Shown one piece after another: positions 22,985 to 44,478 of a stretch of DNA of 64,000 bases. The position numbers and the translations under genes are program-made. The DNA comes from Candidatus Lokiarchaeum ossiferum. GTDB lineage: Archaea > Asgardarchaeota > Lokiarchaeia > Sigyniarchaeales > Promethearchaeaceae. The notes beneath the pieces were generated by a model. That model was not told the origin of the DNA. It worked only from the letters and a program-made list of their open reading frames with translations, and did no database searches. The DNA is taken from contig CP104013.1 in the NCBI GenBank assembly GCA_025839675.1, forward strand, positions 3,041,121 to 3,105,120. The letters run 5' to 3'. Positions within the stretch are counted from its first letter, which is position 1. Each line of letters opens with the position of its first letter.

Positions 22985-24029
22985 CTAGATCAAAAATTGG
23001 TAGGGATATTTTACATCTTAAAGTCGAAAGGAATTGCTTCGGATCAAATTCATATCCAAGAGGTGAAAACGGATTAGCAGTTAGGCATAAAATCTTAATG
23101 GGGGAAAGAACTAAAATTTTACCTCCTGTTTTTTCATATTGATACAATATATCCTTTGATAAAAATAATTTTGTACCATCTGCCACCAACAGTGTAAATT
23201 CTTTATATAAAAGAGAGTTTTCCATTAATCTGATGAGCAAATTATCACTTACAGCACCTTTGATAACTAAATATTGCATATCTTTGGATAAAGAATTGAT
23301 TATCTCAAGTTCAGAATCTAAAGCAGTAGTCATCTGAAGATTTTTTACGATCTCATTCTTATCAATAATCCCAACTCGAGAGATCTGTTCAGTCAATTTC
23401 ATAATATGGGGATTTTTTAACTTATCAAAGGAGAGCAATCTCACGGTATGAGCAGTCATTTCAGAAACGGCATCCATATTTCTTGAAAGACTCGCCCCAG
23501 TTGCGAGAATTGTGGCATCAGTGATTGAAGGGGCAGCAAACGTTTTCCGGCTTAAAGCACCATCCACTAAAACAAGTTCACAGCCTAATTTAAGTAATTC
23601 ATTACAGATTTGTGACAGATATTCGGTTTGCGAGGGACCAGCAATCTCAATATATCCATCACTTAAAGCTCGAACAATAATGATTTCTCCCAGTGGAGTT
23701 CCAATACAAGTATTTGCAAGAATTTCTTTGGTGATATCACTTTGCTCTACACATTGTTTAGCAGTAGCGATAATTGTTCCTTTTTCAATATAAATACGGG
23801 GTTTAGCGGTAGCCGTAACAACATCTATGGTTTCTCCATCTCTTCCGATGGAAGTTAACCCTAATTTGTAACGGGTGCGTATTCGTGAAATTATAAAATT
23901 CAGAGTGGTTGTTTTCCCCACATTTTTTTCCATACCAATTATTGAAACTGTTTGATAATGAACAAGCTGTTGGATTATTCGATCAACTTCAAAGTTTTCT
24001 AAGGTATTTCTTGAACTCATAGTTTTCAA
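22971..24029 (-). CDS. P-loop NTPase of unknown function
   Basis: Walker A GMEKNVGKTTT near the N-terminus. Overlaps MutS-like by 14 nt and lies between kamA and the MutS-like gene. Confidence 0.5.
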   Translation of the reverse strand: MKTMSSRNTLENFEVDRIIQQLVHYQTVSIIGMEKNVGKTTTLNFIISRIRTRYKLGLTSIGRDGETIDVVTATAKPRIYIEKGTIIATAKQCVEQSDITKEILANTCIGTPLGEIIIVRALSDGYIEIAGPSQTEYLSQICNELLKLGCELVLVDGALSRKTFAAPSITDATILATGASLSRNMDAVSEMTAHTVRLLSFDKLKNPHIMKLTEQISRVGIIDKNEIVKNLQMTTALDSELEIINSLSKDMQYLVIKGAVSDNLLIRLMENSLLYKEFTLLVADGTKLFLSKDILYQYEKTGGKILVLSPIKILCLTANPFSPLGYEFDPKQFLSTLRCKISLPIFDLVGGN

Positions 24030-24079
24030 TCCAACATTTCTAGGGGTATGGGGTGTTAGATAAAAAAAAAAGGATGAAT

Positions 24080-25348
24080 TTATTCCTTTTTGATATTTCG
24101 TTTGTGGCGTTCAAGATTTGCGGGTTCAATGGTAATGCCTTCCCCATGTTTTCCCTTACTATGAATAAGTCCTGCAACACCTACGAGATGATTGTATTCT
24201 TCCTCATATTCATCATTCACAATTCCGGGTTTATAATTCTCTGGCTCATCATAGCGACAAATAACACCTTCATAATTACGTAGGATCACTTTTTGATTAC
24301 TTTGCGAAATTACGTAATTGGGCATAACTGGAATTTTTCCCCCACCACCAGGTGCATCAACAATGTAAGTGGGAACGCAGAACCCAGAAGTATGCCCGCG
24401 TAAACCTTCCATAATTTCAATTCCCTTAGAGACAGTTGTCCTAAAATTGAGTAAACCTATTGATAAATCACATTGATACACATAATATGGTCTAACACGT
24501 ATTTTCACTAATTCATGCATCAATTTCTTCATGGTATAAACAGAATCATTTACTCCACGAAGCAATACAGATTGATTTCCAAGAGGAATTCCTGAATTTG
24601 CCAACATTGCACATGCTTGTTGAGATTCGGGAGTAATTTCATGAGGATGGTTAAAATGAGTGTTAAGCCATACCGGATGATATTTTTTGATGATATTACA
24701 TAATTCTGGGGTTATTCGTTGCGGCATCACTACGGGAACCCGTGATCCGATCCGAATGATTTCCACATGAGGAATTTCTCTCAGATTTTTAATAATATAT
24801 TCCAAACGAGTATCAGAAACCAAGAGCGCATCCCCTCCCGAGAGCAGAACATCTCTAACTTTAGGATTATTTCGGATATAATCTATCCCTTGATCAATTT
24901 GATCTTGTTTTAACTGTTTGTCATGGTGACCTGCAAATCTTCGGCGGGTACAATGACGGCAATACATAGAACATTGATCAGTAATTAAGAATAGCACACG
25001 GTCAGGATAACGGTGGGTTAACCCTGGTACGGGGGAATCGGTGTCCTCATGTAAAGGATCTTCAATATCAGCATCACATGAGTAAGTTTCGGCAATTGTT
25101 GGTACACTTTGAAGTTTAATTGGATCCATCGGATCATTAGGATCAATCAAAGATAAATAATAAGGAGTAATTGCCATTCTAAATTTTTCAACACAACCCC
25201 GAGCGCTTTCTTCTTCTTCCTTTGTCAATGGCAAAAATGTTTTTAGAGCCTCAACCGACTCAATACGATTCTTCACTTGCCATTTCCAATCGTTCCAGAG
25301 CTCATCTGAAACATCCCCAAACAATTCCGCTCTTCTATTGACTTTCAT
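24080..25348 (-). CDS. kamA: L-lysine 2,3-aminomutase (radical SAM)
   Basis: Radical-SAM CxxxCxxC (CSMYCRHCTRR), LSGGDAL, C-terminal PGGGGK PLP region. 422 aa. Confidence 0.9.
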   Translation of the reverse strand: MKVNRRAELFGDVSDELWNDWKWQVKNRIESVEALKTFLPLTKEEEESARGCVEKFRMAITPYYLSLIDPNDPMDPIKLQSVPTIAETYSCDADIEDPLHEDTDSPVPGLTHRYPDRVLFLITDQCSMYCRHCTRRRFAGHHDKQLKQDQIDQGIDYIRNNPKVRDVLLSGGDALLVSDTRLEYIIKNLREIPHVEIIRIGSRVPVVMPQRITPELCNIIKKYHPVWLNTHFNHPHEITPESQQACAMLANSGIPLGNQSVLLRGVNDSVYTMKKLMHELVKIRVRPYYVYQCDLSIGLLNFRTTVSKGIEIMEGLRGHTSGFCVPTYIVDAPGGGGKIPVMPNYVISQSNQKVILRNYEGVICRYDEPENYKPGIVNDEYEEEYNHLVGVAGLIHSKGKHGEGITIEPANLERHKRNIKKE

Positions 25349-25422
25349 TTTTTTTCAGCTGAAATATTTAATGAATAAAAAGTAAGTAATTTTGGTAAAA
25401 AAAAAGGATTAGGATTTCGTTC

Positions 25423-26556
25423 TTATACATATTTTTCTTCAAACATTTTTCGAAGAATTGGGCTTTCACGGAGTATTTCGAGCGTGATTTCTGCGTGATC
25501 CTTGCAATATCCATTTCCAATGATCATATTAACATCCTTTCCAACACCTTCAGCACCTAAAGCCGCTTTAGTAAAGCTGGTTGCCATTGAGAAGAAATAC
25601 ACAATTCCATCATCTTTACATGGGAGGATACAAGACATTTCACAATCTGGAACATTTAAACAGTTGATTACAATATCAACTTCTTCGCCGCCAGTTGCTT
25701 CCAATGTTTTTTCATAGATGTCGATAGGACTCTTGGCGTTAGCGATAACAGCTTTATGACAGAATCCATATTCCATCATATATTTAGCACGATCTTCATT
25801 GCGAGCATTTCCCAAAATCAATCCCGTTGGACCTGCACGTTTTCGAGCTTCATAAGCACACATCATCCCAGATTTGCCCGTTGCACCTAGAATTAAAACT
25901 TTTTGACCAGGTTTAACTAATTTTGCAGTTTGAGCAGGAGCCCCAGCAACATCTAAAGCGGCTAAAGCAACAGCTTCACTGAAATCTTCTGGAATTTTAG
26001 AATATATTCCACTTTCAAATAAAATAGCTTTACCAGTAATGTCAGCTCGATCAATATTCATATTCAATTTGTGAATTTTATCAATTCGGAGTGGAGTAAG
26101 GCTTAAACTAACCAATGTAGCGATTTTATCACCAACTTTTAAATCGATTTTCCCTTCTAAGTCTTTTCCAATTTTTTCAACTTTTCCTAATAACATTCCA
26201 CCACTGCCAGTGTCAGGATTTCGATGTTTGCCTTGCATTTCCACAATTTCAAACATTCTTGCTTTCATCTTTTCCTCATCAGCTCCACAGCTTTCTTTAA
26301 TTTGGTGGAAACTTGCGGAATCAATATTTAACGATTGGACGTCAATGAGAATTTCGTTATCGTAAAGAACATCCATGTTGTTGTCGAGTTTATCACAATT
26401 TTGCGGAAGAGCACCTTTGGGTGCAATGACACGGTGTACACCGAATTTTGAACCTTGAACCATTTTTTCTAACTCCAAATAATTCTTCACTCTTTGAGGT
26501 AAGGAATCTAAAAAGTGAATCTTATGAGAATTAAGGTGATGATATATTAAAATCAC
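25423..26556 (-). CDS. kdd: L-erythro-3,5-diaminohexanoate dehydrogenase
   Basis: 377 aa, MDR/Rossmann-like (ILGATGKSG dinucleotide motif); position and size match the Kdd of lysine fermentation clusters. Confidence 0.7.
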   Translation of the reverse strand: MILIYHHLNSHKIHFLDSLPQRVKNYLELEKMVQGSKFGVHRVIAPKGALPQNCDKLDNNMDVLYDNEILIDVQSLNIDSASFHQIKESCGADEEKMKARMFEIVEMQGKHRNPDTGSGGMLLGKVEKIGKDLEGKIDLKVGDKIATLVSLSLTPLRIDKIHKLNMNIDRADITGKAILFESGIYSKIPEDFSEAVALAALDVAGAPAQTAKLVKPGQKVLILGATGKSGMMCAYEARKRAGPTGLILGNARNEDRAKYMMEYGFCHKAVIANAKSPIDIYEKTLEATGGEEVDIVINCLNVPDCEMSCILPCKDDGIVYFFSMATSFTKAALGAEGVGKDVNMIIGNGYCKDHAEITLEILRESPILRKMFEEKYV

Positions 26557-26705
26557 TCAGAAGATAAGTTGGAAATTTTGTTGATTAATAATACATTATT
26601 CGTGATTTTTTGAAATAAGAATTTGCTTATTAATTTTGTCTACATTTAGAGTATTTTTCACAACTAAATTTGCGCATCTTTTCAAAAGGATAAAAAGGAA
26701 AAAAA

Positions 26706-28226
26706 ATGTTACAACTTATGGAAAAAGAACGTTCACGACCTCAATTTATCTGGACTATTTTGAAGGAAATCTATGCTCATCCTGATAATTACAAAAAAAA
26801 CCAAGGTAAAATTCATCAACGGATTAAAAAATGGTTGATAAAACGTTCTAATACCTACAATATTCCCCTCAAAATACAGGAAGATTCGATCGGGAATATT
26901 TTTGTAAGAAAACCTGCTCTTTCGGGGTGTGAAAACTACCCTCCCATTTTATTGCAAGCTCACTACGATATTTACGATAAAAAAGAAAGTTCCATTTATG
27001 ATTTCCAGGGTTCATCGATTAGTTTCCAAGAAAAATGGATTGAAATGATAGGAACCCCCATTTTTGATGACTCAATTGTTGGTGTGGCCTTGATTCTTGC
27101 CGTGTTAATTAATAAAAATGAAATTTTTGAACATGGACCGATAGAAGCACTATTTACTGTAAAACGAGATGATAGATTTGTTGGAGCCCTTAATTTGGAT
27201 GTAGATTATTTCAATATTCAAAGCAAATTCTTGTTAAATTTTGATTCAGTAGATTTAGGGGCAATAACAAATGGTACCGCGGGATGTGCAGAGTTTCTTT
27301 ACTCCAAAAAAGCAACACCTATTGATCCAGGCGAGGGCAAGTATCTTACGTTTTACAAGCTTTCGATTTCTGGCTTGAAGGGAGGAGAATTAGGATCAGA
27401 AATACACTTCTTTCGTGCCAATGCAATTAAACTGATCGCCCGAGCACTTTCTTCTTTAAGTGAACACATGCAAATTAACTTAGCAGACTGGTCCGGAGGG
27501 GATCTCTATCGATTTATTCCCCGAAAATCTACGGTTATTTTTGCGGTTCATACTGATGAAGAATTCAAGGTGGAGCAAATTTTAAAAGAAGAAAAGGGAA
27601 CTATCATCAAAAAATATCGCACGTTCACCGAATATGGGTCCAATCTAGAACCTAATTTATGTATTCAGTGGGAAAAAACGAAAGCAAAACCCTATTTTTC
27701 GAAGAAGATCTCAGAATCAGCCATAGCTCTTGCAAATCTCATTCCGCATGGACTAAGTCGGTCATCTTCAGTTGAAAATGAATTTGGACGTATATCTAAT
27801 AATTTTGCCAAGGTAGAGACGACCCGATCAGCAATACGTTTCCATTCAAAATCTCGCGGGGATAATGCGCCTGAATTTAAAGCTTTTAATAGAACTTTAA
27901 TCCAATTGGGTGACCTTGGTGGTTGGAAAGTGAAAAATGATTATACTTTTCCAGTATGGGTGCCGCAAAAAGAGAAGGAATTTCTGAATTTTGTGAAACA
28001 TAAATATGAAGATATTCTCCAAAAACCGATTCGTATTGATAAATTGTATTGGGTATTAGAACCAGGAATAATTGCCAAACAGATTCCGCAGATGCAAGCC
28101 CTCTCAATTGGACCAACCGAAATTGGAGTGTTTCCTGAAAATTATAAAGTCAGTGTCTATGATATTCAAATCCTCTTTCGTCTTCTACGGACAATTCTTA
28201 AGAATCTAAATCAAATCTCAATGTAA
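26706..28226 (+). CDS. M20C-family peptidase, PepD (Xaa-His dipeptidase)-like
   Basis: N-terminus and ILLQAHYDIY align with PepD PVVLQAHLDMV. SGLKGGELGSEIHF resembles the PepD lid-domain GLKGGHSGGEIH. Some metal ligands appear substituted. Confidence 0.6.
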   Translation: MLQLMEKERSRPQFIWTILKEIYAHPDNYKKNQGKIHQRIKKWLIKRSNTYNIPLKIQEDSIGNIFVRKPALSGCENYPPILLQAHYDIYDKKESSIYDFQGSSISFQEKWIEMIGTPIFDDSIVGVALILAVLINKNEIFEHGPIEALFTVKRDDRFVGALNLDVDYFNIQSKFLLNFDSVDLGAITNGTAGCAEFLYSKKATPIDPGEGKYLTFYKLSISGLKGGELGSEIHFFRANAIKLIARALSSLSEHMQINLADWSGGDLYRFIPRKSTVIFAVHTDEEFKVEQILKEEKGTIIKKYRTFTEYGSNLEPNLCIQWEKTKAKPYFSKKISESAIALANLIPHGLSRSSSVENEFGRISNNFAKVETTRSAIRFHSKSRGDNAPEFKAFNRTLIQLGDLGGWKVKNDYTFPVWVPQKEKEFLNFVKHKYEDILQKPIRIDKLYWVLEPGIIAKQIPQMQALSIGPTEIGVFPENYKVSVYDIQILFRLLRTILKNLNQISM

Positions 28227-28247
28227 AATGAAGAGTTCTCCCAAGAT

Positions 28248-28748
28248 CTAAGGATCCAGATGAAGGGTTTCGTCATCGAGGCACAATTTTTTTTGATCTT
28301 CCTTAATCACATGGGATATCACGAGAGTTTCCAATTTTTCCACTAAATTGGATTTCATGATTTTCGAATAGACACGCTCCATAAAAGATTTGTTATCTTG
28401 GGTTTTGACCAAGATCAGAAAGTTTTGAGCCCCTAAAATGAAATAAACCGCCCATACTTCTTCCATTCCAACTAAGAGGGATTTCATCTTTTCAACCGAA
28501 TCTTCGTGAAATTTTGCGGAAAGCAAAACAGCCGAAAGAAATTCATCTGAATGAGAAGTAAGATTCACATCAGCATGATAACCTTGAATTATTTGTTCTT
28601 CTTCCAATCGTTTAATTCGGTAATGAATGGTGGAAAGGGATACATGTAATTTTTCAGCGAGTTTTCCATATGGAATCCGGCAGTCTCTTTGTAACTCATT
28701 TAGAATTTGTTTATCAATATTATCCAAAAAACTTCGACGATTTGACAT
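28248..28748 (-). CDS. Lrp/AsnC-family transcriptional regulator
   Basis: N-terminal HTH (ILNELQRDCRIPYGKLAEKLHVSLSTIHYRIKRLEE) plus C-terminal RAM domain. Confidence 0.8.
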   Translation of the reverse strand: MSNRRSFLDNIDKQILNELQRDCRIPYGKLAEKLHVSLSTIHYRIKRLEEEQIIQGYHADVNLTSHSDEFLSAVLLSAKFHEDSVEKMKSLLVGMEEVWAVYFILGAQNFLILVKTQDNKSFMERVYSKIMKSNLVEKLETLVISHVIKEDQKKLCLDDETLHLDP

Positions 28749-28865
28749 GCTACTCCCTTAATAACTAATATGGTTATTAAGTCAGAGTAACTCAAAAAAT
28801 TTTTTGATTAGAGATAATATAAAAATAAAATTTGTAAAAAAGAGAATTCGAAAAACAAAACTAAT

Positions 28866-30119
28866 TTATAAAATTGACATCATATCCTTTAAAGTGCGTG
28901 ATACCAGGAAAAGTTGAATATTTCGGCTCCCTCCAATCACTTCTTGCACTTTACTTACCTCAAGTGCTTTATCCACCCGTAAATTATCGGTAAATGCAAT
29001 TCCTCCGCAAATATGTTGGGTTTCATAAGCAATACGATGAGCAAGGTTTGAGGTTAAGAATTTTGTCCCGGAGCTGAACGCGGCATTATATTTGACGAAT
29101 TTTTGATCTGGATATTTCAATAACTTTCGATATTCAATACCCGTTGTAAGTCCGAGAACTGTGGCAGACATCAATTCTGTGAATAGTTTTGTAATTGGAA
29201 AAGACACACCTTGATTATTAAATATGGGTTTTCCAAATTGTTGGCGATTATTGGTATAAATAAGCGAAGTAATAGCTGTAAGCCAACCTATTCCTAAACT
29301 AGAGCCAATAATAGTATCCCGTTCGGCAACTAAACCGGTGAATAAGTTTTTGTAACCTTGTCCTCGCCCACCAATAATGTTTTCTTTGGGCACTTTCACA
29401 TTACTAAAAATTGTTTGACCAATTTCCACTCGAGGAACAGAATTGATTCCAAGTCGATGAGTTTCTAATCCTTTAAAATCCCTTTCTATTATGCCTTGAT
29501 ACATGGTTCCCCGAGGATTCGTTACATCGGATACCCCATAGGCAATAAAATAATCCGCTACAGGTCCATTGGTAGTATATACTTTCTCCCCATTAAACAC
29601 CAAGTGATCATTATTATCTTGAACCGTAGTTTTCATGTTGACCGCATCGGATCCTTGAGTGCGTTCGGTAATACAAATACAGCCGACTTTTCGACCAGAG
29701 ATTGTTTCGGCAAGGATTTCTTGTGCTCGATCCGTACTGCCATGTTGAAAGATTGGATTGGTAAAAATTAACCCAGAGACAACTCGAGCGAGATCTAATT
29801 CAGGATCCATGATTGTAGTGGCCATTGCGAGAAGCAATTCATAACGCATCCCATAATGTTCCATATCCCCAAATTTATTCAATCGTTGCATATAGTTCTT
29901 TTTACCCAATATTGGAAAAAGATCATAGACTTCTTTGGAATAATCCAGTTTGGGCTCTATTTCTTTCAACAAAAAATCTTCTAATTCATAGAGAAATGCC
30001 CGCTCTTCCTCCGTTATTAGAGGTGTTATAAAATTATTGAAAATCTTGTAAATATTTTTAGTAGAGAGTTTCTTCTTTATCTCCCCATCCAATATATCAA
30101 CGCCAGTCATGATGTCCAT
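28866..30119 (-). CDS. acyl-CoA dehydrogenase family protein
   Basis: ACAD C-terminal helical domain (GGIAFTDNLRVDKALEVSKVQEVIGGSRNIQ), catalytic-base region, 417 aa. Confidence 0.8.
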   Translation of the reverse strand: MDIMTGVDILDGEIKKKLSTKNIYKIFNNFITPLITEEERAFLYELEDFLLKEIEPKLDYSKEVYDLFPILGKKNYMQRLNKFGDMEHYGMRYELLLAMATTIMDPELDLARVVSGLIFTNPIFQHGSTDRAQEILAETISGRKVGCICITERTQGSDAVNMKTTVQDNNDHLVFNGEKVYTTNGPVADYFIAYGVSDVTNPRGTMYQGIIERDFKGLETHRLGINSVPRVEIGQTIFSNVKVPKENIIGGRGQGYKNLFTGLVAERDTIIGSSLGIGWLTAITSLIYTNNRQQFGKPIFNNQGVSFPITKLFTELMSATVLGLTTGIEYRKLLKYPDQKFVKYNAAFSSGTKFLTSNLAHRIAYETQHICGGIAFTDNLRVDKALEVSKVQEVIGGSRNIQLFLVSRTLKDMMSIL

Positions 30120-30141
30120 TTAGGTTCTCTCCAAATGATCT

Positions 30142-30990
30142 TTAAAGACCATCCATCTTTCCCCCATTAATCGGAATAATGGCTCCATTCATGAAATATC
30201 CTCCTTCACTGCAAAGAAAACATACAGGATCACTCACATAAGATGTTTTTCCAATTCCAAACGGAATTCTACCCTCATAATAACTTCGGAATTTACCATC
30301 ATCCTTCTTTAAGAGGTTTCCAATAATTGGAGTTTCAATCAAAGTTGGTTTTAGTGCATGGGTTCGAATATTATATCTCGCGAGTTCTTTTGCCATGGTA
30401 AGCGTCATCCCTATAACCCCTGCTTTGGAAGCAGAATATGCTAATTGCCCTGCATTTCCTTCAGCAGCTAAGGAAGCCACGTGAATGACTACACGTGGTT
30501 TATTATCTAGAGTTGGAAGGTATTTTTCTCCTTTTTCTTTCGCCTTGGCACGGGAAAGATTCACCCATTTTGTAACCACTGCTTGAGAGCAAATCGCAGC
30601 CCCTTTCAAATTCACTTCCATGGTTAGATCCCATTTTGCTTCATCAAAACGACTGACTAGGAAATCACGTAAAATTCCAGCACAATTAACCAAAAAATCG
30701 ATATCTCCTATTTTATTGAAAATTGCATCAACCGAGGCATCAACAAAGACTTTATCAGATACAGAACCGTGGAAGAATAAGATTTCTTTGTTAGTAATTG
30801 CTTTTAATTTTTCAACCGCTTCATTTCCCATTTCTTGGTTTAAATCAATAATGGCGACATTAGCACCATTTTCAGCCATATCGGTGGCGATTTTCAGTCC
30901 TATTCCTGAGGCTCCACCAGTAATTAATATAGTTTTTCCTTCAAAATTCCATTTCATCGAATTTACCTTACCTGTCAAGGATTTAATCAA
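30142..30990 (-). CDS. SDR-family oxidoreductase (3-oxoacyl/3-hydroxyacyl reductase-like)
   Basis: TGGASGIGL cofactor motif, NCAG, catalytic YSASK. Confidence 0.8.
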   Translation of the reverse strand: MIKSLTGKVNSMKWNFEGKTILITGGASGIGLKIATDMAENGANVAIIDLNQEMGNEAVEKLKAITNKEILFFHGSVSDKVFVDASVDAIFNKIGDIDFLVNCAGILRDFLVSRFDEAKWDLTMEVNLKGAAICSQAVVTKWVNLSRAKAKEKGEKYLPTLDNKPRVVIHVASLAAEGNAGQLAYSASKAGVIGMTLTMAKELARYNIRTHALKPTLIETPIIGNLLKKDDGKFRSYYEGRIPFGIGKTSYVSDPVCFLCSEGGYFMNGAIIPINGGKMDGL

Positions 30991-31177
30991 AAATTTCTTT
31001 TGTGGTAGCTATGCGAAAGGTATCGCACCACTTTTTTTCATTTTTGATAAAAAGTACTTATAATTTAGCGATTTTTGATTAAAAAGTTTCATTTCTTTTG
31101 GAAATTATTAAAATTATTAAGCGATTTTTGGATTATATCACTATTTTCTTAAATACGTACTCTGCATATTTTCTAGT

Positions 31178-32833
31178 TTATATCATCGATGTTTGTTTCT
31201 TTTGACCATAGGGATTAATATCACCCATGGGAACAAAAATTTTTGAATCAGTCGGCAAAATCACCGTTTTTTCGACATTTTGAAAAGATTTAACTTGTTG
31301 TAATCGCAGATATTCTTCTGTTGTAGAACTTTCAAGTAATAAGAGAGTATTTTTCAAATGTAGTTCCTCTCCTTGATTAACTATAGATTCTCGCATTTGA
31401 ATGGATTCCATTTCCCCTCGTGTTCGCTCTATTGAGGCTTCAGCTTCAATTTTAGCATTTCCGATCTCTTTAAATTTAAAATTTGCCAGTTCCTTCTCAT
31501 ATAATGCTTGTTTTGTATCTTCTATTTCGATTCGTCCTTCCACCAATTGCCGTTCCGCTTCTAATTGAGCAGTTTGTTGAATTTTATTCACATATACATC
31601 CATATTGGATTTAATGGCGGCATTGAGTTGATTCGCAATTTCAGCATCTTGAGGTAGGATTTTCTTAATATCAAGCCCGAAGATCTCGAAATAATTTTCA
31701 TCAAAACGAAAATAGGTAAGATCATGCTTGAAAAGAACAGGTTCGATTAATTCAGCAGCTTTAGAATGAAATTCTTCAAAATTGTGTTGGGCAGCTTCTT
31801 GTCGGATGATGCTAGCCATGGTTTCGGTCGCATATCCGATAAAATCTTCCACCGCAAAAATTTTTTTCAAGTTTTTGGGATCTATATTGAACCGGGTTTT
31901 ATATCTAAGATGAATCAATAACTCCGCATTATCTTTGGTTCTCACACATAGCTGATCAGAAACGAACATTGGACCCAAAAAAATCTTCCATTTAGTCAAG
32001 ATATTTGGCATCTTGGGGGTTTTACCACTAATAATCAATGTTTTAAGCCGATCAAAGGGTTCTAACAAGAGCATTTTTGGTCCTATTTCTACTCGTTGTG
32101 TTTCACCAGAATTGATCATGGCAATTTCTTCCGTTTCTAATTTCAAAGGTATAGCCCGGGATGCATCAATTTGAACTCCAAGGATCTTTAAGGCTCTTTG
32201 TTCCGCGATTGAATAGTGCTTATAATAGAGTTCTTCAAAGGGAGTCAACATCAGAGTTTGAGGTCCCTTCTCTAAACGAACTTGCCCTGTATTAAAATTC
32301 TTTATATATAGGCCATCTTGTGCACCTAAACTAATTGCCTCTATTTCCTTCTCAATTTTGGTGTATATATGCGGATAATATATCATGGGTCCTTTTCTCA
32401 TCCAGATATCCCCCGCTTTGTGCATTATTTCATCTTCCCGATAATCTTGTATACATCTGATAATAAGTCCTCTATCATGGGCCAGAACATAATTATTGTA
32501 AATTTTTCCGTCTTCCAGTATTTCTCCAGGATATAATGAAAATATACATGGCCCTTGCCGAATCTCGCGCACACCATGTTTAATAATTCGCTTCTTTGAG
32601 TCATGAGGATTGATTATAGTAGCATATTGCCCTTCTTTTATTATTATTTTTTCTCGAATAGTTCCATATAGTTTTTTCCACCACAGATATTTTATTCTTC
32701 GGTACGGTCCTTCAATAAGGTTGACTTGACCGGTAAATTTGTTGATAACATGGCAATATTCCAATTCTGTGAGAATTAATGTCGATATTTTGTGCGTTTT
32801 TGCTGGGGAGGAAAGTTTTTTCATTGTACACAC
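31178..32833 (-). CDS. major vault protein (MVP) homolog, truncated form
   Basis: About 55-aa repeats. [54 protein letters not shown] matches the human MVP repeat [91 protein letters not shown] matches the MVP shoulder [38 protein letters not shown] (human sequence recalled from memory). C-terminal coiled coil. Confidence 0.6.
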   Translation of the reverse strand: [551 protein letters not shown]

Positions 32834-32949
32834 TTAAAAATAACTCAAGTATTTAATTTACCAATGTCACATAAATAATGTGACTATTGTGAATAATGAA
32901 AACTTTTTTTTCAAAGTAAAAATTGCATTTAGTATAGAGAATTAAGACA

Positions 32950-33681
32950 ATGATATATCAAGAACGAGTCCATGTTATTCCTGTTGGTGATGATGATGTT
33001 GATAGAATCGTAATTCCTGCCATTCAAGGGAAGGCTGATAAGGTGTACTTGGTCACTATGGACGATAAAGATTTGTTCCAAACTATCGTTCAAGAAGCGG
33101 AATCTCGTCTCAGAGATTTAAGGATTGAGGTAATCGTCAAACGTTGCAATTTGGAAAGCTTTAGTGATTTTATTTTAGAAATTGCCCGCATCATTAAGTC
33201 TGAGATAGACAAGAAAAACATACTAAACTATAGTATATCTACCGGAGGGAATCTTGCCGCAGCTGCTGGAATGTTAGCTTGTCTTCTATTTCAAATTCGG
33301 CCGTATTTTATTAAAAAAGATTTTTCTATTGGGAAAATATCTAAAGAGCAGTTGAATATTCCATTATACCATATGGATGTGCCTGGAAAACCCCTTATAT
33401 TATTTCTAAATGATATGAAAACTGAAATGGATAACCATGGTACCACCTCAATTTCCAAGAAGGATTGCTTGGAGCTCATGAAAAGACGTCACCCAGATGA
33501 AATTTTCTCATCTACTTCTGGTGAATATAATAAACTCAAGTTCCGCTATTTGGACAAACTTCTTGGTAATCATTTCATTGATATTGAAAGTAAAGTTCGC
33601 GGAAGAATCTCAATTACCTCTGAAGGACTGTTTGCTTGGGATTTCTTCACTATTTATTACAACGTTTCATCAAGAAATTAG
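32950..33681 (+). CDS. putative transcriptional regulator (HFX_2341/CARF-like Rossmann domain + C-terminal wHTH-like region)
   Basis: The N-terminus VHVIPVGDDDVDRIVIPAI resembles the VHIVPVGFEYDRV opening of archaeal HFX_2341-type/CARF-like regulators (memory-based). Divergent from the MVP gene. Confidence 0.35.
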   Translation: MIYQERVHVIPVGDDDVDRIVIPAIQGKADKVYLVTMDDKDLFQTIVQEAESRLRDLRIEVIVKRCNLESFSDFILEIARIIKSEIDKKNILNYSISTGGNLAAAAGMLACLLFQIRPYFIKKDFSIGKISKEQLNIPLYHMDVPGKPLILFLNDMKTEMDNHGTTSISKKDCLELMKRRHPDEIFSSTSGEYNKLKFRYLDKLLGNHFIDIESKVRGRISITSEGLFAWDFFTIYYNVSSRN

Positions 33682-33855
33682 GATCCCCATCATCTATTCA
33701 ATGGAGCTGAAATTCAAAAAAAAAGATGTTTTTCCAAATAAGACTGTCTGAATTACGAATTTCTTTTAACAATCTTAAATTAATAGCATGTTCTTCGACC
33801 TATTTACAAAGATTATATTTGGAGGGAGTGGTTTAACACAATTGGAGATATTTTT

Positions 33856-34293
33856 ATGAAATCAATAATCCGAATGCGAATGTCCATGCATGATGCCCAT
33901 TATGGTGGGAATTTAGTTGATGGCGCGAAAATGCTTAATCTTTTTGGTGATGTTGCCACAGAGTTGCTAATTCGAAATGATGGTGATGAAGGTCTTTTCC
34001 GAGCTTATGACAATGTTGAGTTCTTAGCCCCCGTTTATGCAGGCGATTACATTGAAGCCACGGGTGAAATTATTGGAATCGGCAATAGTTCCCGGAAGAT
34101 GCAGTTCGAAGCTCGCAAAGTAATTATTCCTCGACCGGATTTAAATGATAGTGCTTGTGATGTGCTCACAGAACCTATTGTTGTTTGTCGTGCCAGTGGA
34201 ACTTGTGTTGTACCGAAAAACAAGCAGCGAAATTTGATTCCAATATCCCAATCTACAGTACCAACTTCCCCTAGTGGTTTAGCATTTAAATAG
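33856..34293 (+). CDS. kal: 3-aminobutyryl-CoA ammonia-lyase (hot-dog fold)
   Basis: [62 protein letters not shown] closely matches bacterial Kal as recalled. 145 aa. Confidence 0.75.
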
Positions 34294-37200
34294 CTTCGAT
34301 ACTCGATGATGGAGGGTTTCTTCATTCAATTGTTTTTTTTCTTGTAATTCACCACAAATCTTCTTAAAATCTAACCAAATAACTGTAGTTAGTTTGCTCC
34401 TAATTTTTGGATATAAATTCTCAATCACCTCATACATACATATTTGTTCCGCCATGGAATAAGTCTGGTATCTTTTTTTTGGTAGAAATAGAGGTATTTC
34501 TAGATAATCTTGATTATTTTTCGCTAGAAAGAATGGTTGTTTTCGAGAAATATTTAGAAGTTTACTAATGTCCTTTTCATAATAAATATCATATGGGATA
34601 ATGGGAGTGATATAAAAGTCGAGATGATAAGATTCTAAGATTGAATAGAGTTTATCATATAAAATTTGTACATTTTCACGCAAATGCAAAAAAATAACCA
34701 ATTTTTGAGCGTCATTCTGGGAATTTTTAGTATAAAGTATTTGTCCAGTGGGTAGTTGTTCTACCAAGGCTCGAATTTCTTTTTCTCTTGTTTGAGAATC
34801 CTCAATGATTAGGCACATAGTGAATGGATAGCCGATTATTTGCCAGAATTCCCATTTAAAAAACCGAGGTTGATACAAGATATTATTGTTGAAAAGGAGT
34901 TGAACTTCAGTTTCAGAAAGATCTTGATTAGTTTGATATTTTTTGAGCATCGCTTTGAGATCCTCAGATAAAGTGTGAAAACTATAGTCATAGTGAATCT
35001 CATGTGGATTGACAAAAAACTCAGCATCTTTTTTCTTCACTTTTTTTAATAGTAAATAATTCTGATACCGCCAATCCAGAGGATAGAGAGCATGTTCATT
35101 AAAAAAACGTCTTTCTTCAGTTAATTCATGAGAGTGTAAGCTAATTTGAAATTTTAATTTAATATTTTTAATCAATCGTTGAAAATTTGAGTTTTGATCA
35201 TAATATATTTGTTCTGGAAGGTAATATTCTAAAATTAAAAACCCATTCTCATTCCCACCAAAATAATAGCAATTTTCAAGACCAAGCATTAATAAACCCT
35301 TCAGTAATTCATCTTTCTGAAAAATAAGTGGATTGATTCCTCTATTAGGTGGTTTGATGAAGATAAATATTCTCTTCATTTTTGAGATTGGTGGATAAAT
35401 TTTAAGATCTGAAAAGTAATATTGTGTAATCTCATTTAGATCATTTGAAAATTTTCCAACAATGGAGGAGTATATGTTATTATTTAAAACACAGCGATTT
35501 AGGAATATTTTTTTAAAAATCGATTGGATCTTTGTACGATTTAAACCTAAGGTCTTGGAAAAACTATTCAATTGATTAAAATAGTTTAAATTTTTGAATA
35601 AATAATTATAGTTAAATTTACTTTTAATAGAGCACTTTTGATTAAAATTTGTATTCAAATGCAGATTTTTGCTTGGTATTATTCGAGTGACTCGTTTTTT
35701 TGCTTCGTTAATTAAAAAATCAAGATTAAAACTTTCTAAATTCCATTCTTGTTTATTGTAATTAAAAAAGGTAATCATGGAAGGATCGAATGCTTTTGAG
35801 AAGTTTCTGTAAAGAATTGACAAAGAATCAATGTTTTCTAACAAAAGTAACTTAGATATGATTAAAAAGGAAGATATGTTTGCAAATATACCTTTATGAT
35901 GCATTATTTTTCTATATGGTAGAACTTGTTGAAATTTTATTGACACAAATAGGAGAAATACCTCATCGATCCAATCCAATTTATATTTGCTTAAAATAAA
36001 AAATTTTATCACCTCCTTGTGTGAATTAAAAAATGAATTAATGGCCATTATCTTCGAATTTCTTAATAAATCATTGTATATTAGAGAGATAAACTTGTTT
36101 TCAATGATTTGGAAAGAATGATTTTTGACTTGAGAAAAATTTCTTTTAATATCAGCTAAAGTTGGGAATAAGTCAATCTCTAAATCTAATTTTTCAATTG
36201 ATTCTGTACTCGTAAATCCGAAAAATTCTATCAATTTGAGAAGCTTAATTTCATTCTTATTTTCATAGCTTTGATTTTTATAATATTTGAAAATTTCATT
36301 CAATGAGGAAAACCGTTGAAAAACCTTATCTTGATTAAGATGGATGAAAGTTTTTTTCAATTGACTAAAATTTGGATAATTTTTAATTAAAACAGGAAAC
36401 TCACTCGTTTTAATGGTTAGTTTGATGAATTTCAAAAATTCTCTCATTGTTTTAAATTCTTGAAGTTTTGAAAGGAGCATACGTGAATTGAAGAATAGAA
36501 ATAAATCTAAAGAATCAATTTCGATCTTGTCGGATAATTTACTGCCATTTGCATAAAAAAGTTCTGAATTATGTGAAATTTTCTGGTTAAATGAATTTTT
36601 TCTTTTTTCATTGATTTTGGAAAAATATTTTTTAGAATTAAAGGGAAAGATCGAAAGAATGTTTGTTTCACTTGAAATTTTTGAATTATAATTAATATTA
36701 TAGTTCGCTTTTTTAATTTCTAATAAGTTATAACTAATTATGTATCCACTTTCCTTTAATGAATTAAGAAATTTCGCTAAAAAATTAAGAGAATTTCGAG
36801 GAAGGATGGAATAAAGGAATAAATCATATCCTTCCTTCCTAATAATATTAACGTATGGTATTTTATGGATAATTTTTTTTATAAATTTATTCTGATCGAT
36901 TCCATTAGCAAGAATTATGTTGACGTAGTAAATACCAAGATTGAGATTATTATATTGATTAACAACAAAATAATTTAAAATCATACTTCCAGTGTAAATT
37001 TCAGAATTGGAGCCTTTCCTATTTAGAAGAAGATCCCTATTCGATTTATGGAGATTTTTCTTAATAAAGCCTAAATTGATATTTTTTCCGATATAATTTC
37101 CATAGGTATAAAATAACCCTTGAATAAAATCATGGGTACTGATATTCTCTGATAAAAATGGAATAAAAGTCTTAAAAACAATTTCTAGAGATATATTTTG

Positions 37201-37599
37201 AAGAAAATTCTCGATAAATGAGAGATAAACCATCGAATTATTTATGATCCCTGAAAAATGATCCAAAATCTCTTGATAAATTGGCTTTAATTCAAATAAT
37301 TCATTGTTTTTAAAATGGAGAAGAAATATAAAAGAAATGATATTTCTGTTGTCTAAATATCTTTCATCCATGAAACTGATAATAGAAGCAAATTCTACCA
37401 ATTGAATATAATTGTCCTTGTAATTCGAATGAAGATGGATAGATTCACTCAATAATAACCCAAAGTTTTTTTGAAAATTAGAAATTTCATTAGGATCACT
37501 ATGAAATAAAATATTTTTAAAAATGAAATTAGGAATTCTTTCGAATAGAAGCTCATATTTTGAGATATATTGAAGATATTTTTCGTATAAAATTCCCAT
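34279..37599 (-). CDS. large (1106 aa) low-complexity N/K/I/F-rich hypothetical protein
   Basis: A 3.3-kb stop-free frame in AT-rich DNA is unlikely by chance. No recognisable domain. Its 3' end overlaps kal convergently by 15 nt. Confidence 0.5.
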
Positions 37600-37757
37600 T
37601 GACTGTTAATTACTGATTCATCTGGAAAGAAAAATCTTTCTATGAAAAATATATGATTTTAAAAATATTGACTTAATTAATTAATGAGAAAAATGTATGA
37701 AAAAACCCTTATTACGATTAATTTTTTGCAGTTTTCCATTCGTGAGGTGAATGATAA

Positions 37758-37793
37758 ATGAATGTTCCAAACGATGTACAACTCCCACAATAA
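37758..37793 (+). CDS. micro-ORF MNVPNDVQLPQ (11 codons) behind strong SD GAGGTGA
   Basis: SD at 37744-37750, 7-nt spacer, then ATG. A paralogous copy lies 380 bp downstream. Too short for the ORF track. Confidence 0.15.
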   Translation: MNVPNDVQLPQ

Positions 37794-37797
37794 AAAA

Positions 37798-37864
37798 AAT
37801 GTCCTTTAAAAACCAATTAGATCAAAAAATCTAAGAATGTCCTTTAAAAACCAAGTAGATCAAA
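37798..37864 (+). repeat. 38-bp tandem direct repeat (2 copies, 28/29 identical)
   Basis: AATGTCCTTTAAAAACCAATTAGATCAAA at 37798-37826 and AATGTCCTTTAAAAACCAAGTAGATCAAA at 37836-37864. Confidence 0.5.
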
Positions 37865-38137
37865 TCTACTTTTTTTAAAGTTCATTTGGTTAAACTTGTT
37901 GAATAATGAAGGGGTATTGAAATCAATTTTAATATACGTATTCATATTTATAGAGATTTTGAAGATATTTTTCGTATAAAATTCACGTTGACTGTTAATT
38001 ACTGAATCGTTAAATTAAAAAAGTGTTTCGAAATATTTTGAGTTTATATACTCAAATCTAAAAAATATCTGAGAAAAATGCATAATCCTAATTGTCCGGA
38101 AAATAATCCTGTTTTCTAACTTTGAGGTGACATGTTA

Positions 38138-38170
38138 AATGAAAATACCGAATGATGTATTTACTCCTTA
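38138..38170 (+). CDS. micro-ORF MKIPNDVFTP (10 codons) behind strong SD GAGGTGA
   Basis: SD at 38124-38130, then ATG at 38138. Paralog of the 37758 micro-ORF with synonymous changes at Pro and Asn codons. Confidence 0.15.
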
Positions 38171-38463
38171 AAAAATTAACTAATTGATTTCCCATGCAAT
38201 TTTGATGGAATAGATTTGATTAAATTGCTTGAAACTCAAATAGAATGAATTCTTTTCTTTTCAATATATCTTTATTTCAAATTCAATATTCATTTATCGT
38301 CTTAAAATCAATTTTTTTCAATTATATGAAATGAATCATTTCTGTTCCCCCTTTTTTTTTACTAAATTACCTATCTTTTCTCTTTAGCTAAAAATTAGAT
38401 CACATTTTTAATCGAATACAATATAAACAAAATTATTGCATTTTTACTCATGAGGTGATACCA

Positions 38464-39708
38464 ATGGTAGAAAAATTAAAACTTGAAAAATCCGAACAAT
38501 ATTACAAAGAAGCTCTTGAAGTAATTCCAGGTGCCATTTTGGGAATACGTAGACCCTATAATTTTGTTGTAGGTGAATATCCTATCTTTTTTGAAAGCGC
38601 TGATGGTGGAAAAGTGAAAGATGTTGATGGAAATGAATATATCGATATGCTTTGTGCATATGGACCTATTATCATAGGGCATAAGGAAAAAGAGATTGAT
38701 GATGCAGTTATTGCTCAGATACAGAATAAAGGATTCTGTTTCTCCCTTACCCAAGAAATCCAAAATAAACTGGCAAAAAAACTTACCGAATTGATCCCAT
38801 CATGTGAAAAAAGTGTGTTTGTGAAAACAGGATCAGACGCAACCACAACGGCAGTTAGAGTCGCACGAGGATATACAGATCGAACAAAAATTTTGCGCTG
38901 TGGCTATCATGGATGGCATGATTGGTGTGTAGAAGTAAAGGGTGGAGTTCTCCCAAAGACTTATGAGGATGTAATCGAATTTGAATATAACAATTTAGAG
39001 CAGGTAAAAGAATTATTTGAAAAGTATGGACCTGAAATAGCTGGAGTTATCATTACTCCAGTAGGACACCCTCTTGCACATGAAGTAGAGATGCCAAAAC
39101 AGGGATTTTTGGAAGGTATTCGAGAGATTACAGAAAAAAATGGAACTGTACTCATTTTTGATGAGATTCGGAGCGGATTTCGAGTGAATTTGGGCGGAGC
39201 CCAAAAAGAATTTGGAGTTACACCCGATATGTCCGTCTTTGGGAAAGCGATTGCCAATGGCTATCCTATTGGTGTGGTGGTAGGTAAAAGCGAATTTATG
39301 GATGTATTAGCAGACAAAGTGTTTTTAAGTTCCACATTCTTCCCAAACAGTTTGGCTCAAGTCGCTGCGCTGAAAACCATTGAAATTATGGAACGAGATA
39401 AGATTTTGGATGTGATCAGAGAAAAAGGGACAAAATTCGGAGCTATGATTGAAAAAATCATCAAAGAAAGCGGAATTGCGTGTACTTTTTCCGGTGCTCC
39501 TTGGATGCCCTTTATCACCTTTGATCATGATCCTAACAAGTTATATAAGAAATTGCGGAATGAATTCTATACCCGTTTAATCCGTCGAGGTGTTTTCCTC
39601 CAACCATATCATCATGGTTACATTGCTTACCGTCATTCCGAGGAGGATTTAGAATATGTGGCAAAAGTTATCAAAGAATCTCTAGAAGAATTAAAACAAT
39701 TTCTATAA
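38464..39708 (+). CDS. class-III aminotransferase of the glutamate-1-semialdehyde 2,1-aminomutase (HemL) family; candidate acyl-CoA beta-transaminase (Kat-like) or hemL
   Basis: VIPGAILG...DVDGNEYID...TGSDATTTAVRVARGYT...GYHGWHD...IFDEIRSGFRV...FGKAIANGYPIG (PLP-Lys in FGK) is colinear with HemL. The ATG at 38464 lies 6 nt after SD GAGGTGA; the track's 38455 is a GTG. Confidence 0.75.
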   Translation: MVEKLKLEKSEQYYKEALEVIPGAILGIRRPYNFVVGEYPIFFESADGGKVKDVDGNEYIDMLCAYGPIIIGHKEKEIDDAVIAQIQNKGFCFSLTQEIQNKLAKKLTELIPSCEKSVFVKTGSDATTTAVRVARGYTDRTKILRCGYHGWHDWCVEVKGGVLPKTYEDVIEFEYNNLEQVKELFEKYGPEIAGVIITPVGHPLAHEVEMPKQGFLEGIREITEKNGTVLIFDEIRSGFRVNLGGAQKEFGVTPDMSVFGKAIANGYPIGVVVGKSEFMDVLADKVFLSSTFFPNSLAQVAALKTIEIMERDKILDVIREKGTKFGAMIEKIIKESGIACTFSGAPWMPFITFDHDPNKLYKKLRNEFYTRLIRRGVFLQPYHHGYIAYRHSEEDLEYVAKVIKESLEELKQFL

Positions 39709-39819
39709 TTTGTGTTGAGTTTCCAGTTTTTTACAATTTTTTTTAATAACAAAAACCAGTTCAAATCCTTTTCTAAGAAAGAAATATGTGTTTAATAAAA
39801 AGTCCATATTAGTAATCAT

Positions 39820-40641
39820 ATGGAAAAATTGATCATAACCGCAGCGATAAGCGGTGCAGAAGTGATGAAGGAACATAACCCAGCGGTTCCATACACAATT
39901 GAAGAAATTGGAAGAGAAGCAGAATCAGCCTATAAAGCGGGAGCAAGTATCATTCATTTACATGTGCGAAATGATGATGGAACTCCTACCCAAGATAAAG
40001 CACGATTTCAAGCTTGTATGGAGGAAATTCGAAAACGTTGCTCAGATGTTATAATCCAACCTTCGACCGGTGGGGCAGTAGGAATGACCGATGATGAACG
40101 TTTACAACCGACAGAGTTATCTCCAGAAATGGCCACCCTCGATTGTGGAACCTGTAATTTTGGAGGGGATGATATTTTTGTCAATTCAGAAAACACCATT
40201 AAAAATTTCGCCATAAAGATAAAAGAACGCGGAATCAAACCCGAATGCGAATGTTTTGAAAAGGGACATATTGACATGGCCATTAAAATGCACAAGAAAG
40301 GATTGATTGATGCCCCAATGCACTTTAATATGGTGTTAGGAGTTTCAGGAGCAATGAGTGCCACCCCTCGAGATTTGACGTTTATGGTAGATAGTATTCC
40401 TTTGGGCTCAACCTTCACTGTATGCGCGATGGGGCGATATCAAATGCAAATGGCCGCAATTTCAATAGTACTCGGCGGACATGTTCGAGTGGGTTTTGAG
40501 GACAATGTCTATATTTCTCGAGGAGTGCTCGCCAAATCAAATGGAGAATTGGTGGAAAAAGCAGTTAGAATTGCAAAAGAGTTAGGGCGAGAAATTGCAA
40601 CTCCTGCCGAAACTCGAAAAATACTGGGATTAGTAAAGTAA
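39820..40641 (+). CDS. kce: 3-keto-5-aminohexanoate cleavage enzyme (BKACE/DUF849 TIM barrel)
   Basis: IITAAISGAE...IIHLHVRNDDG...PSTGGAVG...RVGFEDN with zinc ligands H-H-E conserved. Near-colinear with bacterial Kce as recalled. Confidence 0.8.
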   Translation: MEKLIITAAISGAEVMKEHNPAVPYTIEEIGREAESAYKAGASIIHLHVRNDDGTPTQDKARFQACMEEIRKRCSDVIIQPSTGGAVGMTDDERLQPTELSPEMATLDCGTCNFGGDDIFVNSENTIKNFAIKIKERGIKPECECFEKGHIDMAIKMHKKGLIDAPMHFNMVLGVSGAMSATPRDLTFMVDSIPLGSTFTVCAMGRYQMQMAAISIVLGGHVRVGFEDNVYISRGVLAKSNGELVEKAVRIAKELGREIATPAETRKILGLVK

Positions 40642-40647
40642 AAAAAA

Positions 40648-42297: not shown

Positions 42298-42325
42298 TAA
42301 ATATACCTACTAAATTTACAAAAGG

Positions 42326-42375
42326 AATAAAAAAGCATTTTTTACACACACTGGAAATAAAAAAGCATTTTTTGG
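42326..42375. promoter_or_regulatory. pair of 18-20 bp direct repeats AATAAAAAAGCATTTTTT upstream of the DEAD-box helicase start
   Basis: Copies at 42326-42345 and 42356-42375 (30-bp period), each an A6-GC-T6 hairpin-capable element. Located between the CoA-transferase B stop and the helicase ATG. Confidence 0.3.
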
Positions 42376-44466: not shown

Positions 44467-44478
44467 AATAAAACACTC

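Follow-up and report, generated by a model that had tools for sequence, protein, structure and literature searches.

A compact, five-repeat major vault protein encoded by the Asgard archaeon Candidatus Lokiarchaeum ossiferum

An intact MVP gene resident in an archaeal genome

Among the ribonucleoprotein particles found in eukaryotic cells, vaults are the largest. Here, we describe a gene encoding a major vault protein (MVP) homolog on the 6,274,825-bp contig of the cultured Asgard archaeon Candidatus Lokiarchaeum ossiferum, within a stretch of 64,000 nucleotides that was analyzed as a whole (hereafter the window). A preliminary description of this DNA, made from its letters, had proposed a 551-aa MVP homolog in an archaeal, possibly Asgard, genome, and the identity of the host bears out its guess at the lineage. 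In the ORF list, the uninterrupted open reading frame (ORF) 31178..32833 on the minus strand does give 551 aa, counted mechanically from a GTG. The NCBI model of the same protein (P0001, annotated as “hypothetical protein” and 100% identical) has 548 aa and starts at an ATG at position 32824, three codons downstream of the GTG. Residues are numbered on the 548-aa form unless stated, and Pfam positions refer to the 551-aa form. The gene was thus placed as follows.

31178..32824, minus strand: MVP-homolog coding sequence, 548 aa plus stop (ORF list, identity to P0001, reading of the start region, and tblastn, which maps the protein to 32824..31181)

The MVP gene is a native, resident archaeal gene that has been vertically maintained. 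Its GC content of 0.357 compares with a mean of 0.353 ± 0.030 over 43 ORFs of the window, its GC at third codon positions is 0.301 against 0.272 ± 0.035, and its codon-usage distance is 0.159 against 0.191 ± 0.042. Because composition and codon usage match those of the neighbors and around 40 orthologs are present in other Asgard archaea, the gene is not a contaminant. Nothing was found in favor of contamination or of a recent transfer from a eukaryote or a bacterium, and such an origin has practically no chance of being correct. It is refuted by the 100% identity to a protein on the L. ossiferum contig, by GC, third-position GC and codon usage that all fall within one standard deviation of the window genes, and by the orthologs themselves, which are 37-55% identical and lie on contigs of Promethearchaeota, Sigynarchaeota, Helarchaeota, and Odinarchaeota, whereas eukaryotic and cyanobacterial proteins are merely 25-36% identical and belong to another length class. 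The preliminary description had asked whether GC or codon usage would betray a contaminant; both resemble those of the neighbors. No second MVP copy was found in the 64-kb window.

Domain architecture and family membership

Several independent searches placed the protein, referred to below as Loki MVP, in the MVP family. Pfam matched MVP_shoulder (PF11978) at E = 4.7e-26 over residues 287-396, covering the full profile from 1 to 118 with 91.6 bits against a cut-off of 25. Vault (8.3e-9, residues 115-154) and Vault_3 (1.9e-8, residues 244-280) also scored above their cut-offs, and Vault_2 (1.1e-4, residues 81-108) reached 23.1 bits, just under its cut-off of 23.6. No NCBIfam model matched the protein. 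When all PDB chains were searched with phmmer, the significant matches were major vault proteins only, led by rat MVP (6.4e-47) and human MVP (3e-45), and a profile of 38 Asgard orthologs improved the MVP match to 2.3e-117. An AlphaFold2 monomer model built on the alignment of Asgard orthologs had a mean predicted local distance difference test score (pLDDT) of 82.9, with 310 residues at a value of at least 90. The top Foldseek matches of this model in the PDB were the human, rabbit, and rat vault cages (E from 6.9e-40 to 2.2e-32; template modeling score 0.65, query-normalized; ~25-26% identity). A second tier (E from 3e-8 to 1e-4) consisted wholly of SPFH cage assemblies, namely erlin, HflK/C, flotillin, prohibitin, stomatin, and QmcA, and a search of a viral structure library returned SPFH proteins only. 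The architecture that emerges is the following.

31979..32782, minus strand: five tandem vault beta repeats, residues 15-282 (AlphaFold2 secondary structure with pLDDT mostly >90; Pfam Vault, Vault_2, and Vault_3; profile alignment)
31652..31969, minus strand: shoulder with an SPFH/Band-7-like alpha/beta fold, residues 286-391 (Pfam MVP_shoulder; AlphaFold2; Foldseek)
31334..31645, minus strand: cap helix, a single continuous alpha helix of 104 aa with a net charge of -6, residues 394-497 (AlphaFold2; aligns to rat 650-769)
31181..31321, minus strand: C-terminal region, residues 502-548, with a short helix at 502-512 followed by a tail (AlphaFold2)
31229..31270, minus strand: conserved C-terminal motif, residues 519-532, with P524 invariant, a candidate element for closing the cap ring or apex (38 Asgard sequences)

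In the model, the repeats are bounded at residues 15-62 (R1), 66-114 (R2), 118-166 (R3), 171-229 (R4, with a short helix), and 233-282 (R5). The shoulder is the most conserved segment of the MVP family. Pfam, the PDB sequence searches, and AlphaFold2 with Foldseek all agree, and Loki MVP is a genuine compact member of the MVP family whose homology is beyond doubt. The preliminary description had thus recognized the family correctly, and the Vault and MVP_shoulder profiles, whose silence would have counted against it, gave significant matches. Its estimate of four to five repeats becomes five in the model, and its SPFH-like shoulder was recovered both by the MVP_shoulder profile and by the SPFH cages among the Foldseek matches. 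It had also called the protein strikingly close to human MVP; the homology stands, but at ~25-26% identity the closeness was overstated. The canonical eukaryotic form has nine repeats and ~100 kDa, and Loki MVP has five repeats and 548 aa. Canonical size and repeat number define the eukaryotic form and not membership of the family, and archaeal relatives span from ~4 to ~10 repeats.

Loki MVP is predicted to be soluble and cytoplasmic. The highest 19-residue Kyte-Doolittle hydropathy is 1.09, in a segment within the shoulder, and the N-terminus is polar. The hydropathy scan found no hydrophobic segment, hairpin, or N-terminal membrane anchor, and no match to Band_7 (PF01145) appeared even at E≤1.

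Correspondence with eukaryotic MVP

Positions 58-496 of the Asgard profile are colinear with rat residues 279-769, a segment that runs from R6-R9 through the shoulder and over the greater part of the cap helix (E = 1.7e-83). A further alignment joins positions 12-164 to rat 10-173, that is R1-R3 (E = 4e-21), and positions 12-57 match rat R1 alone (rat 10-55). Loki repeats R2-R5 are hence colinear with rat R6-R9, and the first Loki repeat matches rat R1. This alignment means that the archaeal protein keeps both ends of the repeat array and that eukaryotic MVP has about four extra internal repeats. In the eukaryotic vault, the two halves are joined through R1. The eukaryotic half-vault is a 39-mer, and the rat vault is made of 39 + 39 subunits forming two symmetric cups.

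After the cap helix, the Asgard family carries the motif KT[VL]IVPTDS[RK]LF.P, in which P524 is invariant in 38 sequences. Related C-terminal motifs were seen in DPANN archaea (VIVPTD...), in intermediate long forms (VVF[VL]PSGS.LNLF), and in eukaryotic and cyanobacterial MVPs (S.LITDG..PINLF). The likeness to the eukaryotic LITDG..PINLF was judged by eye, the tail being unaligned by the family profile, and inspection of the motifs makes this stretch a candidate for a shared apex or cap-ring element.

Distribution, repeat number, and phylogeny

The 38 aligned Asgard orthologs have a mean column identity of 49%, with 37 invariant columns spread across all domains, which indicates purifying selection; conservation is even along the whole repeat array. 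An exhaustive profile search through 1.84 billion representative proteins recovered 2,182 relatives with E≤1e-3, of which 389 reached E≤1e-30. Orthologs of 480-570 aa and 37-55% identity form ~40 clusters, whose sources are metagenomes and assemblies of Promethearchaeota/Lokiarchaeia, Sigynarchaeota, Helarchaeota, and Odinarchaeota. The taxonomy of these relatives was taken from the source names in the protein searches, as a pattern scan of contigs gave two loci only (a Promethearchaeota metagenome-assembled genome and Helarchaeota Hel_GB_A). NCBI names some of the orthologs “SPFH domain-containing protein,” and several have weak Band_7 matches. Some long proteins scored almost as high as the Asgard short forms in the profile search.

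One of the long proteins, P0055, is encoded on a gene-dense prokaryotic contig.

4339..6720 of locus L012, metagenome ERZ27254767: P0055, a DPANN-type MVP of 793 aa with ~9-10 repeats

A search with P0055 uncovered a sister group of Woesearchaeota and Nanoarchaeota (DPANN) proteins of 560-650 aa, together with one Eremiobacterota protein. These DPANN proteins (Woesearchaeota P0202, Nanoarchaeota P0209, and the metagenomic P0055 and P0057) share the architecture of Loki MVP and a VIVPTD-type C-terminal motif, and P0055 is ~38% identical to Loki MVP over 549 aligned residues. They differ from it in their clearer Band_7 matches, in lengths that range from 560 to 793 aa, and in forming a separate clade in the tree. 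The start of the shoulder tracks the number of repeats, falling at residue 216 in Odinarchaeota (~4 repeats), 287 in Loki MVP (5), 307 in Woesearchaeota (5-6), and 528 in P0055 (~9-10). In the AlphaFold2 model of P0055 (pLDDT 72), the extra beta repeats are located N-terminally. Residues 26-238 of P0055 are a tandem duplicate of its own following R1-R4 block (blastp, 30% identity, E = 2.6e-22), both blocks begin with an R1-type motif, and repeat expansion therefore occurred independently within archaea.

The preliminary description had asked for a phylogeny with eukaryotic and bacterial MVPs, and a rough one was made by neighbor joining (Kimura distances, 521 shared columns, 200 bootstraps). 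It separates a clade of eukaryotes and cyanobacterial long forms (100%) and a DPANN group (100%), with deep nodes at 24-55% support. Mean distances are 1.67 between Asgard and eukaryotic proteins, 1.65 between DPANN and eukaryotic proteins, 0.64 between eukaryotic and cyanobacterial proteins, and 1.57 between the Asgard short forms and the cyanobacterial long forms. In this rough tree, eukaryotic MVP does not appear closer to the Asgard than to the DPANN forms, and the tree neither confirms nor contradicts an Asgard-specific origin or the published proposal that some Asgard MVPs affiliate with eukaryotes. The reach of vault proteins into archaea that the preliminary description had put forward holds for Asgard archaea and, to judge from the Woesearchaeota and Nanoarchaeota sequences, Asgard archaea are not the only ones with close multi-repeat MVPs.

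A 529-aa short MVP of the five-repeat type is filed as eukaryotic (P0043, EukProt gene3362-5909_t). It groups with the Odinarchaeota and DPANN forms and not with eukaryotic MVPs and probably entered a protist dataset as a contaminating prokaryotic sequence, although it would be of interest if genuinely eukaryotic.

Upstream region and genomic neighborhood

The MVP gene is divergent from a gene for a CARF regulator, with an intergenic region of 125 bp (32825..32949) that holds two candidate control elements (the first two entries below).

32851..32860, minus strand: TATA-like element TAAATTAAAT, 27-36 nt upstream of the ATG, a candidate archaeal promoter (read from the sequence)
32866..32884, no strand assigned: perfect palindrome GTCACAT-N5-ATGTGAC, a candidate operator just upstream of the TATA-like element (repeat search)
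32950..33681, plus strand: CARF3-family protein with CARF domain and winged helix, Csa3-like (PADLOC 7.2e-31; Pfam HFX_2341_N 3.7e-19 and DUF6293_C)
34279..37599, minus strand: 1106-aa ORF rich in L, I, N, K, and F, with a GC content of 0.262 against the window mean of 0.353 (~3 standard deviations low), 1.4 kb from the MVP gene

The TATA-like element, if it is the promoter, would imply a transcript with a short leader or none; it is weak evidence because the genome has 35% GC. The palindrome occurs once in 64 kb against 0.01 expected and may be the operator of the divergent CARF regulator. The pairing with a CARF regulator was seen in no other Asgard locus compared. The 1106-aa ORF had no Pfam, PADLOC, or PHROG match and may be either an orphan gene that evolves fast or an insertion of foreign DNA.

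Around these genes lies a near-complete lysine-fermentation and acyl-CoA cluster (~19100..47800 of the window), which is interrupted by the MVP, CARF, thioesterase, and 1106-aa ORF genes together; the thioesterase gene is also counted among the members of the cluster, the others being listed here.

19108..19896: KamE-like B12-binding subunit (lysine 5,6-aminomutase)
19897..21489: KamD, lysine 5,6-aminomutase alpha subunit (5.9e-272)
21464..24029: MutS_V-like protein and an unannotated 352-aa protein, a candidate reactivase pair
24080..25348: KamA, lysine 2,3-aminomutase
25423..26556: Zn-dehydrogenase-like protein
28866..30119: acyl-CoA dehydrogenase
30142..30990: short-chain dehydrogenase
38455..39708: class-III aminotransferase
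39820..40641: beta-keto acid cleavage enzyme (1e-109)
42443..43782: CoA-transferase A/B
44479..45753: thiolase
46176..47798: HMG-CoA-synthase-like protein

This context is not kept elsewhere. At six further Asgard loci, the neighbors are unrelated to those of the window and no lysine-fermentation genes accompany MVP. When the ORFs of ten loci were compared all against all, only MVP and its antisense shadow ORFs recurred, and the large unannotated proteins upstream of MVP in the Asgard loci gave no blastp matches to one another. Aminotran_3 neighbors in three loci were considered as a conserved partner and rejected, since an identity of just 25-32% makes them paralogs. The MVP gene is thus a stand-alone unit without a conserved partner gene.

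Two other Asgard loci have arrangements of their own. In an Odinarchaeota metagenome-assembled genome (GCA_048885365.1, locus L005, 8001..12833), two tandem MVP paralogs of 479 and 491 aa, 54% identical and with ~four repeats each, directly adjoin a convergent flotillin gene (578 aa, Band_7 and Flot), an arrangement that may reflect either an archaeal vault of hetero-oligomeric make-up or a connection with SPFH membrane scaffolds. On a 127-kb contig (GCA_043956695.1, locus L008, 1..17587), a 528-aa MVP ortholog (P0035) sits amid ~30 small ORFs, mostly on one strand and none with a Pfam match, and the gene right after it (DUF7666 plus pentapeptide) matches the phage family phrog_14105 at 6e-67. 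This second locus resembles a virus or mobile element that bears an MVP gene and recalls the predicted vault proteins reported for Borg elements (PMC12660748).

Elsewhere in the window, the AT-rich spacer that separates the MVP stop from the downstream short-chain dehydrogenase gene holds two copies of CAAAAATCGCT(T)AA ~50 bp apart (31070..31135); they may be a regulatory site for the dehydrogenase gene or may be due to chance. An ADP-ribosylglycohydrolase gene (18272..19045, minus strand, 4.5e-33) shares 10 bases with the start of the gene for a 981-aa P-type cation ATPase (15336..18281, minus strand), which suggests co-transcription. ORFs that measure 240-590 aa and match nothing in Pfam at 1e-5 are found at 359..1669, 1810..2532, 2654..3493, 3640..4443, 4993..5736, 9186..10952, and 11356..12297, and this run of uncharacterized Lokiarchaeal ORFs surrounds a tRNA-Val (4840..4915).

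Proposed assembly and alternative explanations

The most likely state of Loki MVP, to which we give a probability of about 0.6, would be a small soluble cup or shell. Eukaryotic MVP and all solved SPFH relatives among the Foldseek matches assemble into homo- or hetero-oligomers that are closed or dome-shaped, and the long helix following the SPFH domain makes up their converging wall. By analogy, many MVP copies would pack side by side, with the repeat array as the wall, the shoulders as a ring, and the cap helices as a converging helical barrel that the C-terminal motif might close at the apex. Such packing would yield a homo-oligomeric shell in the form of a cup, far smaller than the 39-mer half-vault of eukaryotes, and two such cups may pair into a closed mini-vault because the first Loki repeat is the counterpart of rat R1. 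The published modeling of a Lokiarchaeial ortholog, in which ten subunits gave a closed cup, also speaks for such a state, though its score is modest. It is by this analogy that we infer oligomerization, stoichiometry, closure, cup pairing, and any cargo. As to the cellular role, we would guess that the protein assembles by itself into a container or scaffold in the cytoplasm and needs no dedicated operon partner.

Several observations weigh against such a cup or shell. The cap helix, with 104 residues against ~155 in the rat, is about one third shorter, and it has no 3.5-residue hydrophobic periodicity (power 1.6, compared with 11.4 on average after shuffling). The preliminary description had spoken of a short cap-helix coiled coil; the short helix holds, but for lack of this periodicity the coiled coil was dropped in favor of a helical barrel by analogy. 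The C-terminal tail that would close the apex is disordered in the AlphaFold2 monomer, with pLDDT <50 for residues 514-548. Rat D39 and R42, which are reported to pair the half-vaults in the rat vault structure, are not conserved at the aligned positions. Rfam found two tRNAs only and no vault RNA in the 64-kb window, and no TEP1- or PARP4-like domains (TROVE, PARP, VIT, vWA) were found among the 43 window ORFs of at least 150 aa, so that a eukaryote-style ribonucleoprotein is unsupported. A search of the literature found no experimental archaeal vaults and no vault data for L. ossiferum. The multimer model of a Lokiarchaeial MVP by Köstlbacher et al. (bioRxiv 10.1101/2024.07.03.601958), a closed cup at 10 subunits, has an interface predicted template modeling score of 0.525, which is of low confidence.

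Some of the same points would fit a protein that forms an open ring, a single cup, or no shell at all and acts as a soluble scaffold or adaptor, the closed two-cup vault having come later with the extra repeats of the eukaryotic and cyanobacterial forms. Five repeats only, the shorter cap helix, the unconserved rat pairing residues, and the single decameric cup of modest score from the published modeling all agree with this. The counterpart of R1 and the candidate C-terminal closure motif are nevertheless both kept, and conservation is even along the repeat array, as expected if wall contacts matter, and we regard an open or shell-less form as rather unlikely. Loki MVP could instead be a membrane-associated scaffold of the SPFH type, a dome like those of flotillin, stomatin, or HflK/C that organizes a microdomain or a client protein. 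The SPFH fold of the shoulder, the SPFH cages as second-best structural matches, orthologs named for this domain with several weak Band_7 matches, and the tandem Odinarchaeota paralogs beside a flotillin gene speak for it. A membrane scaffold is, however, hard to reconcile with a protein that has no hydrophobic segment or hairpin (maximum hydropathy 1.09), no Band_7 match at E≤1 against 4.7e-26 for MVP_shoulder, five vault repeats, closest to those of MVP, where SPFH proteins have their membrane anchor, and no nearby gene for an NfeD or protease partner, and we consider it improbable.

An origin in a mobile element or defense island, with MVP serving as a capsid-like container or an infection-induced shell, has even less to recommend it and strikes us as very improbable, in spite of the setting of ortholog P0035 among ~30 small unannotated ORFs next to a phrog_14105 match (6e-67), of Borg extrachromosomal elements reported with predicted vault proteins (PMC12660748), and, in the window itself, of the divergent CARF3 and winged-helix regulator, the low-GC 1106-aa ORF 1.4 kb away, and the interrupted lysine-fermentation cluster. 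The MVP gene has a native composition, it has no PADLOC match, and its sole PHROG match is weak and lies over the SPFH region. No integrase, transposase, or tRNA flanks it in the window, its CARF neighbor is not conserved elsewhere, and most orthologs are found among ordinary metabolic genes.

The small soluble cup or shell thus remains the favored state, and it invites a bolder model that is possible but that we hold with more doubt than confidence. L. ossiferum would build a closed mini-vault, a cytoplasmic compartment predating eukaryotes, in which the number of repeats sets the size of the shell and was expanded independently in DPANN archaea and in the line leading to eukaryotes, and the CARF regulator might control its expression through the palindrome at 32866-32884. 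If true, CARF control would tie vault production to nucleotide second-messenger signaling, in stress or infection.

Comparison with known vault and SPFH proteins

The preliminary description had implied that an MVP in such an organism is new, which it is not. A five-repeat archaeal MVP is already known, and our finding is correct rather than new, because Köstlbacher et al. have published five-repeat Lokiarchaeial MVPs. Their main text (bioRxiv 10.1101/2024.07.03.601958; Nat Microbiol 2026, PMC12962969) reports ten Asgard MVP homologs, describes a Lokiarchaeial MVP with five and not nine repeats, a cap helix, and a shoulder, presents a decamer cup model and a phylogeny, and concludes that the origin of eukaryotic MVP is prokaryotic and possibly Asgard. 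These are the same kind of protein as Loki MVP; L. ossiferum is not named in that main text, and its protein may or may not be among the ten. Against those ten, ~40 Asgard-type clusters were found here, and the DPANN sister group is absent from the main text of the paper (PMC12962969). The additions made here are modest: the DPANN sister group, a repeat number that is variable and was independently expanded, the correspondence with R1 and R6-R9, a C-terminal motif that by eye resembles the eukaryotic one, and a gene for which no partner is conserved. A further, local addition is the unconserved pairing of the MVP gene with a CARF regulator and a unique palindrome in their shared promoter region.

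That the archaea most closely related to eukaryotes have a compact MVP suggests that the vault shell predates eukaryotes, a point already in print. The reading as an Asgard origin is tempered by DPANN relatives that are equally close, by the plasticity of the repeat number, and by eukaryotic MVP being closest to the cyanobacterial long forms. Archaeal MVP offers a simpler system for asking what the vault shell does, and a cultured Asgard archaeon with an intact, native copy of the gene allows a direct test of the vault hypothesis.

Other prokaryotic relatives differ from Loki MVP to various degrees. Bacterial MVP homologs, which are prokaryotic members of the same family, have been described in Cyanobacteria, Myxococcales, and Cytophagales (Daly et al. 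2013; Sokolskyi 2019, bioRxiv 10.1101/872010). The cyanobacterial ones are long forms of 872-892 aa that cluster tightly with eukaryotic MVP (distance 0.64, 100% bootstrap) and are far from the Asgard short forms (1.57). Proteins in which an MVP-repeat fold is followed by an SPFH domain, an order shared with Loki MVP, have been argued to be pan-archaeal (PLoS Comput Biol 2026, PMC13607799). Those proteins have one repeat, 317-396 aa, and lineage-variable C-termini, and Loki MVP is much closer to true MVP because of its five repeats, its MVP-type shoulder, and a cap helix colinear with that of eukaryotic MVP.

The SPFH cage proteins (stomatin, prohibitin, flotillin, HflK/C, erlin, and QmcA) share with Loki MVP the fold of the shoulder and the long helix that follows it in the dome wall, a likeness that supports oligomerization of Loki MVP into a dome. 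They are membrane-anchored and lack vault repeats, whereas Loki MVP has five repeats, no hydrophobic anchor, and no significant Band_7 match. Eukaryotic MVP, as seen in the rat and human structures (PDB 4V60, 4HL8, 7PKZ, 9BW5, and 9R86), shares with Loki MVP the order and the folds of its domains and has a C-terminal motif that looks related. It is longer, at ~860-890 aa against 548 aa, and has nine repeats against five. Eukaryotic repeat R4, which binds PARP4, has no counterpart in Loki MVP.

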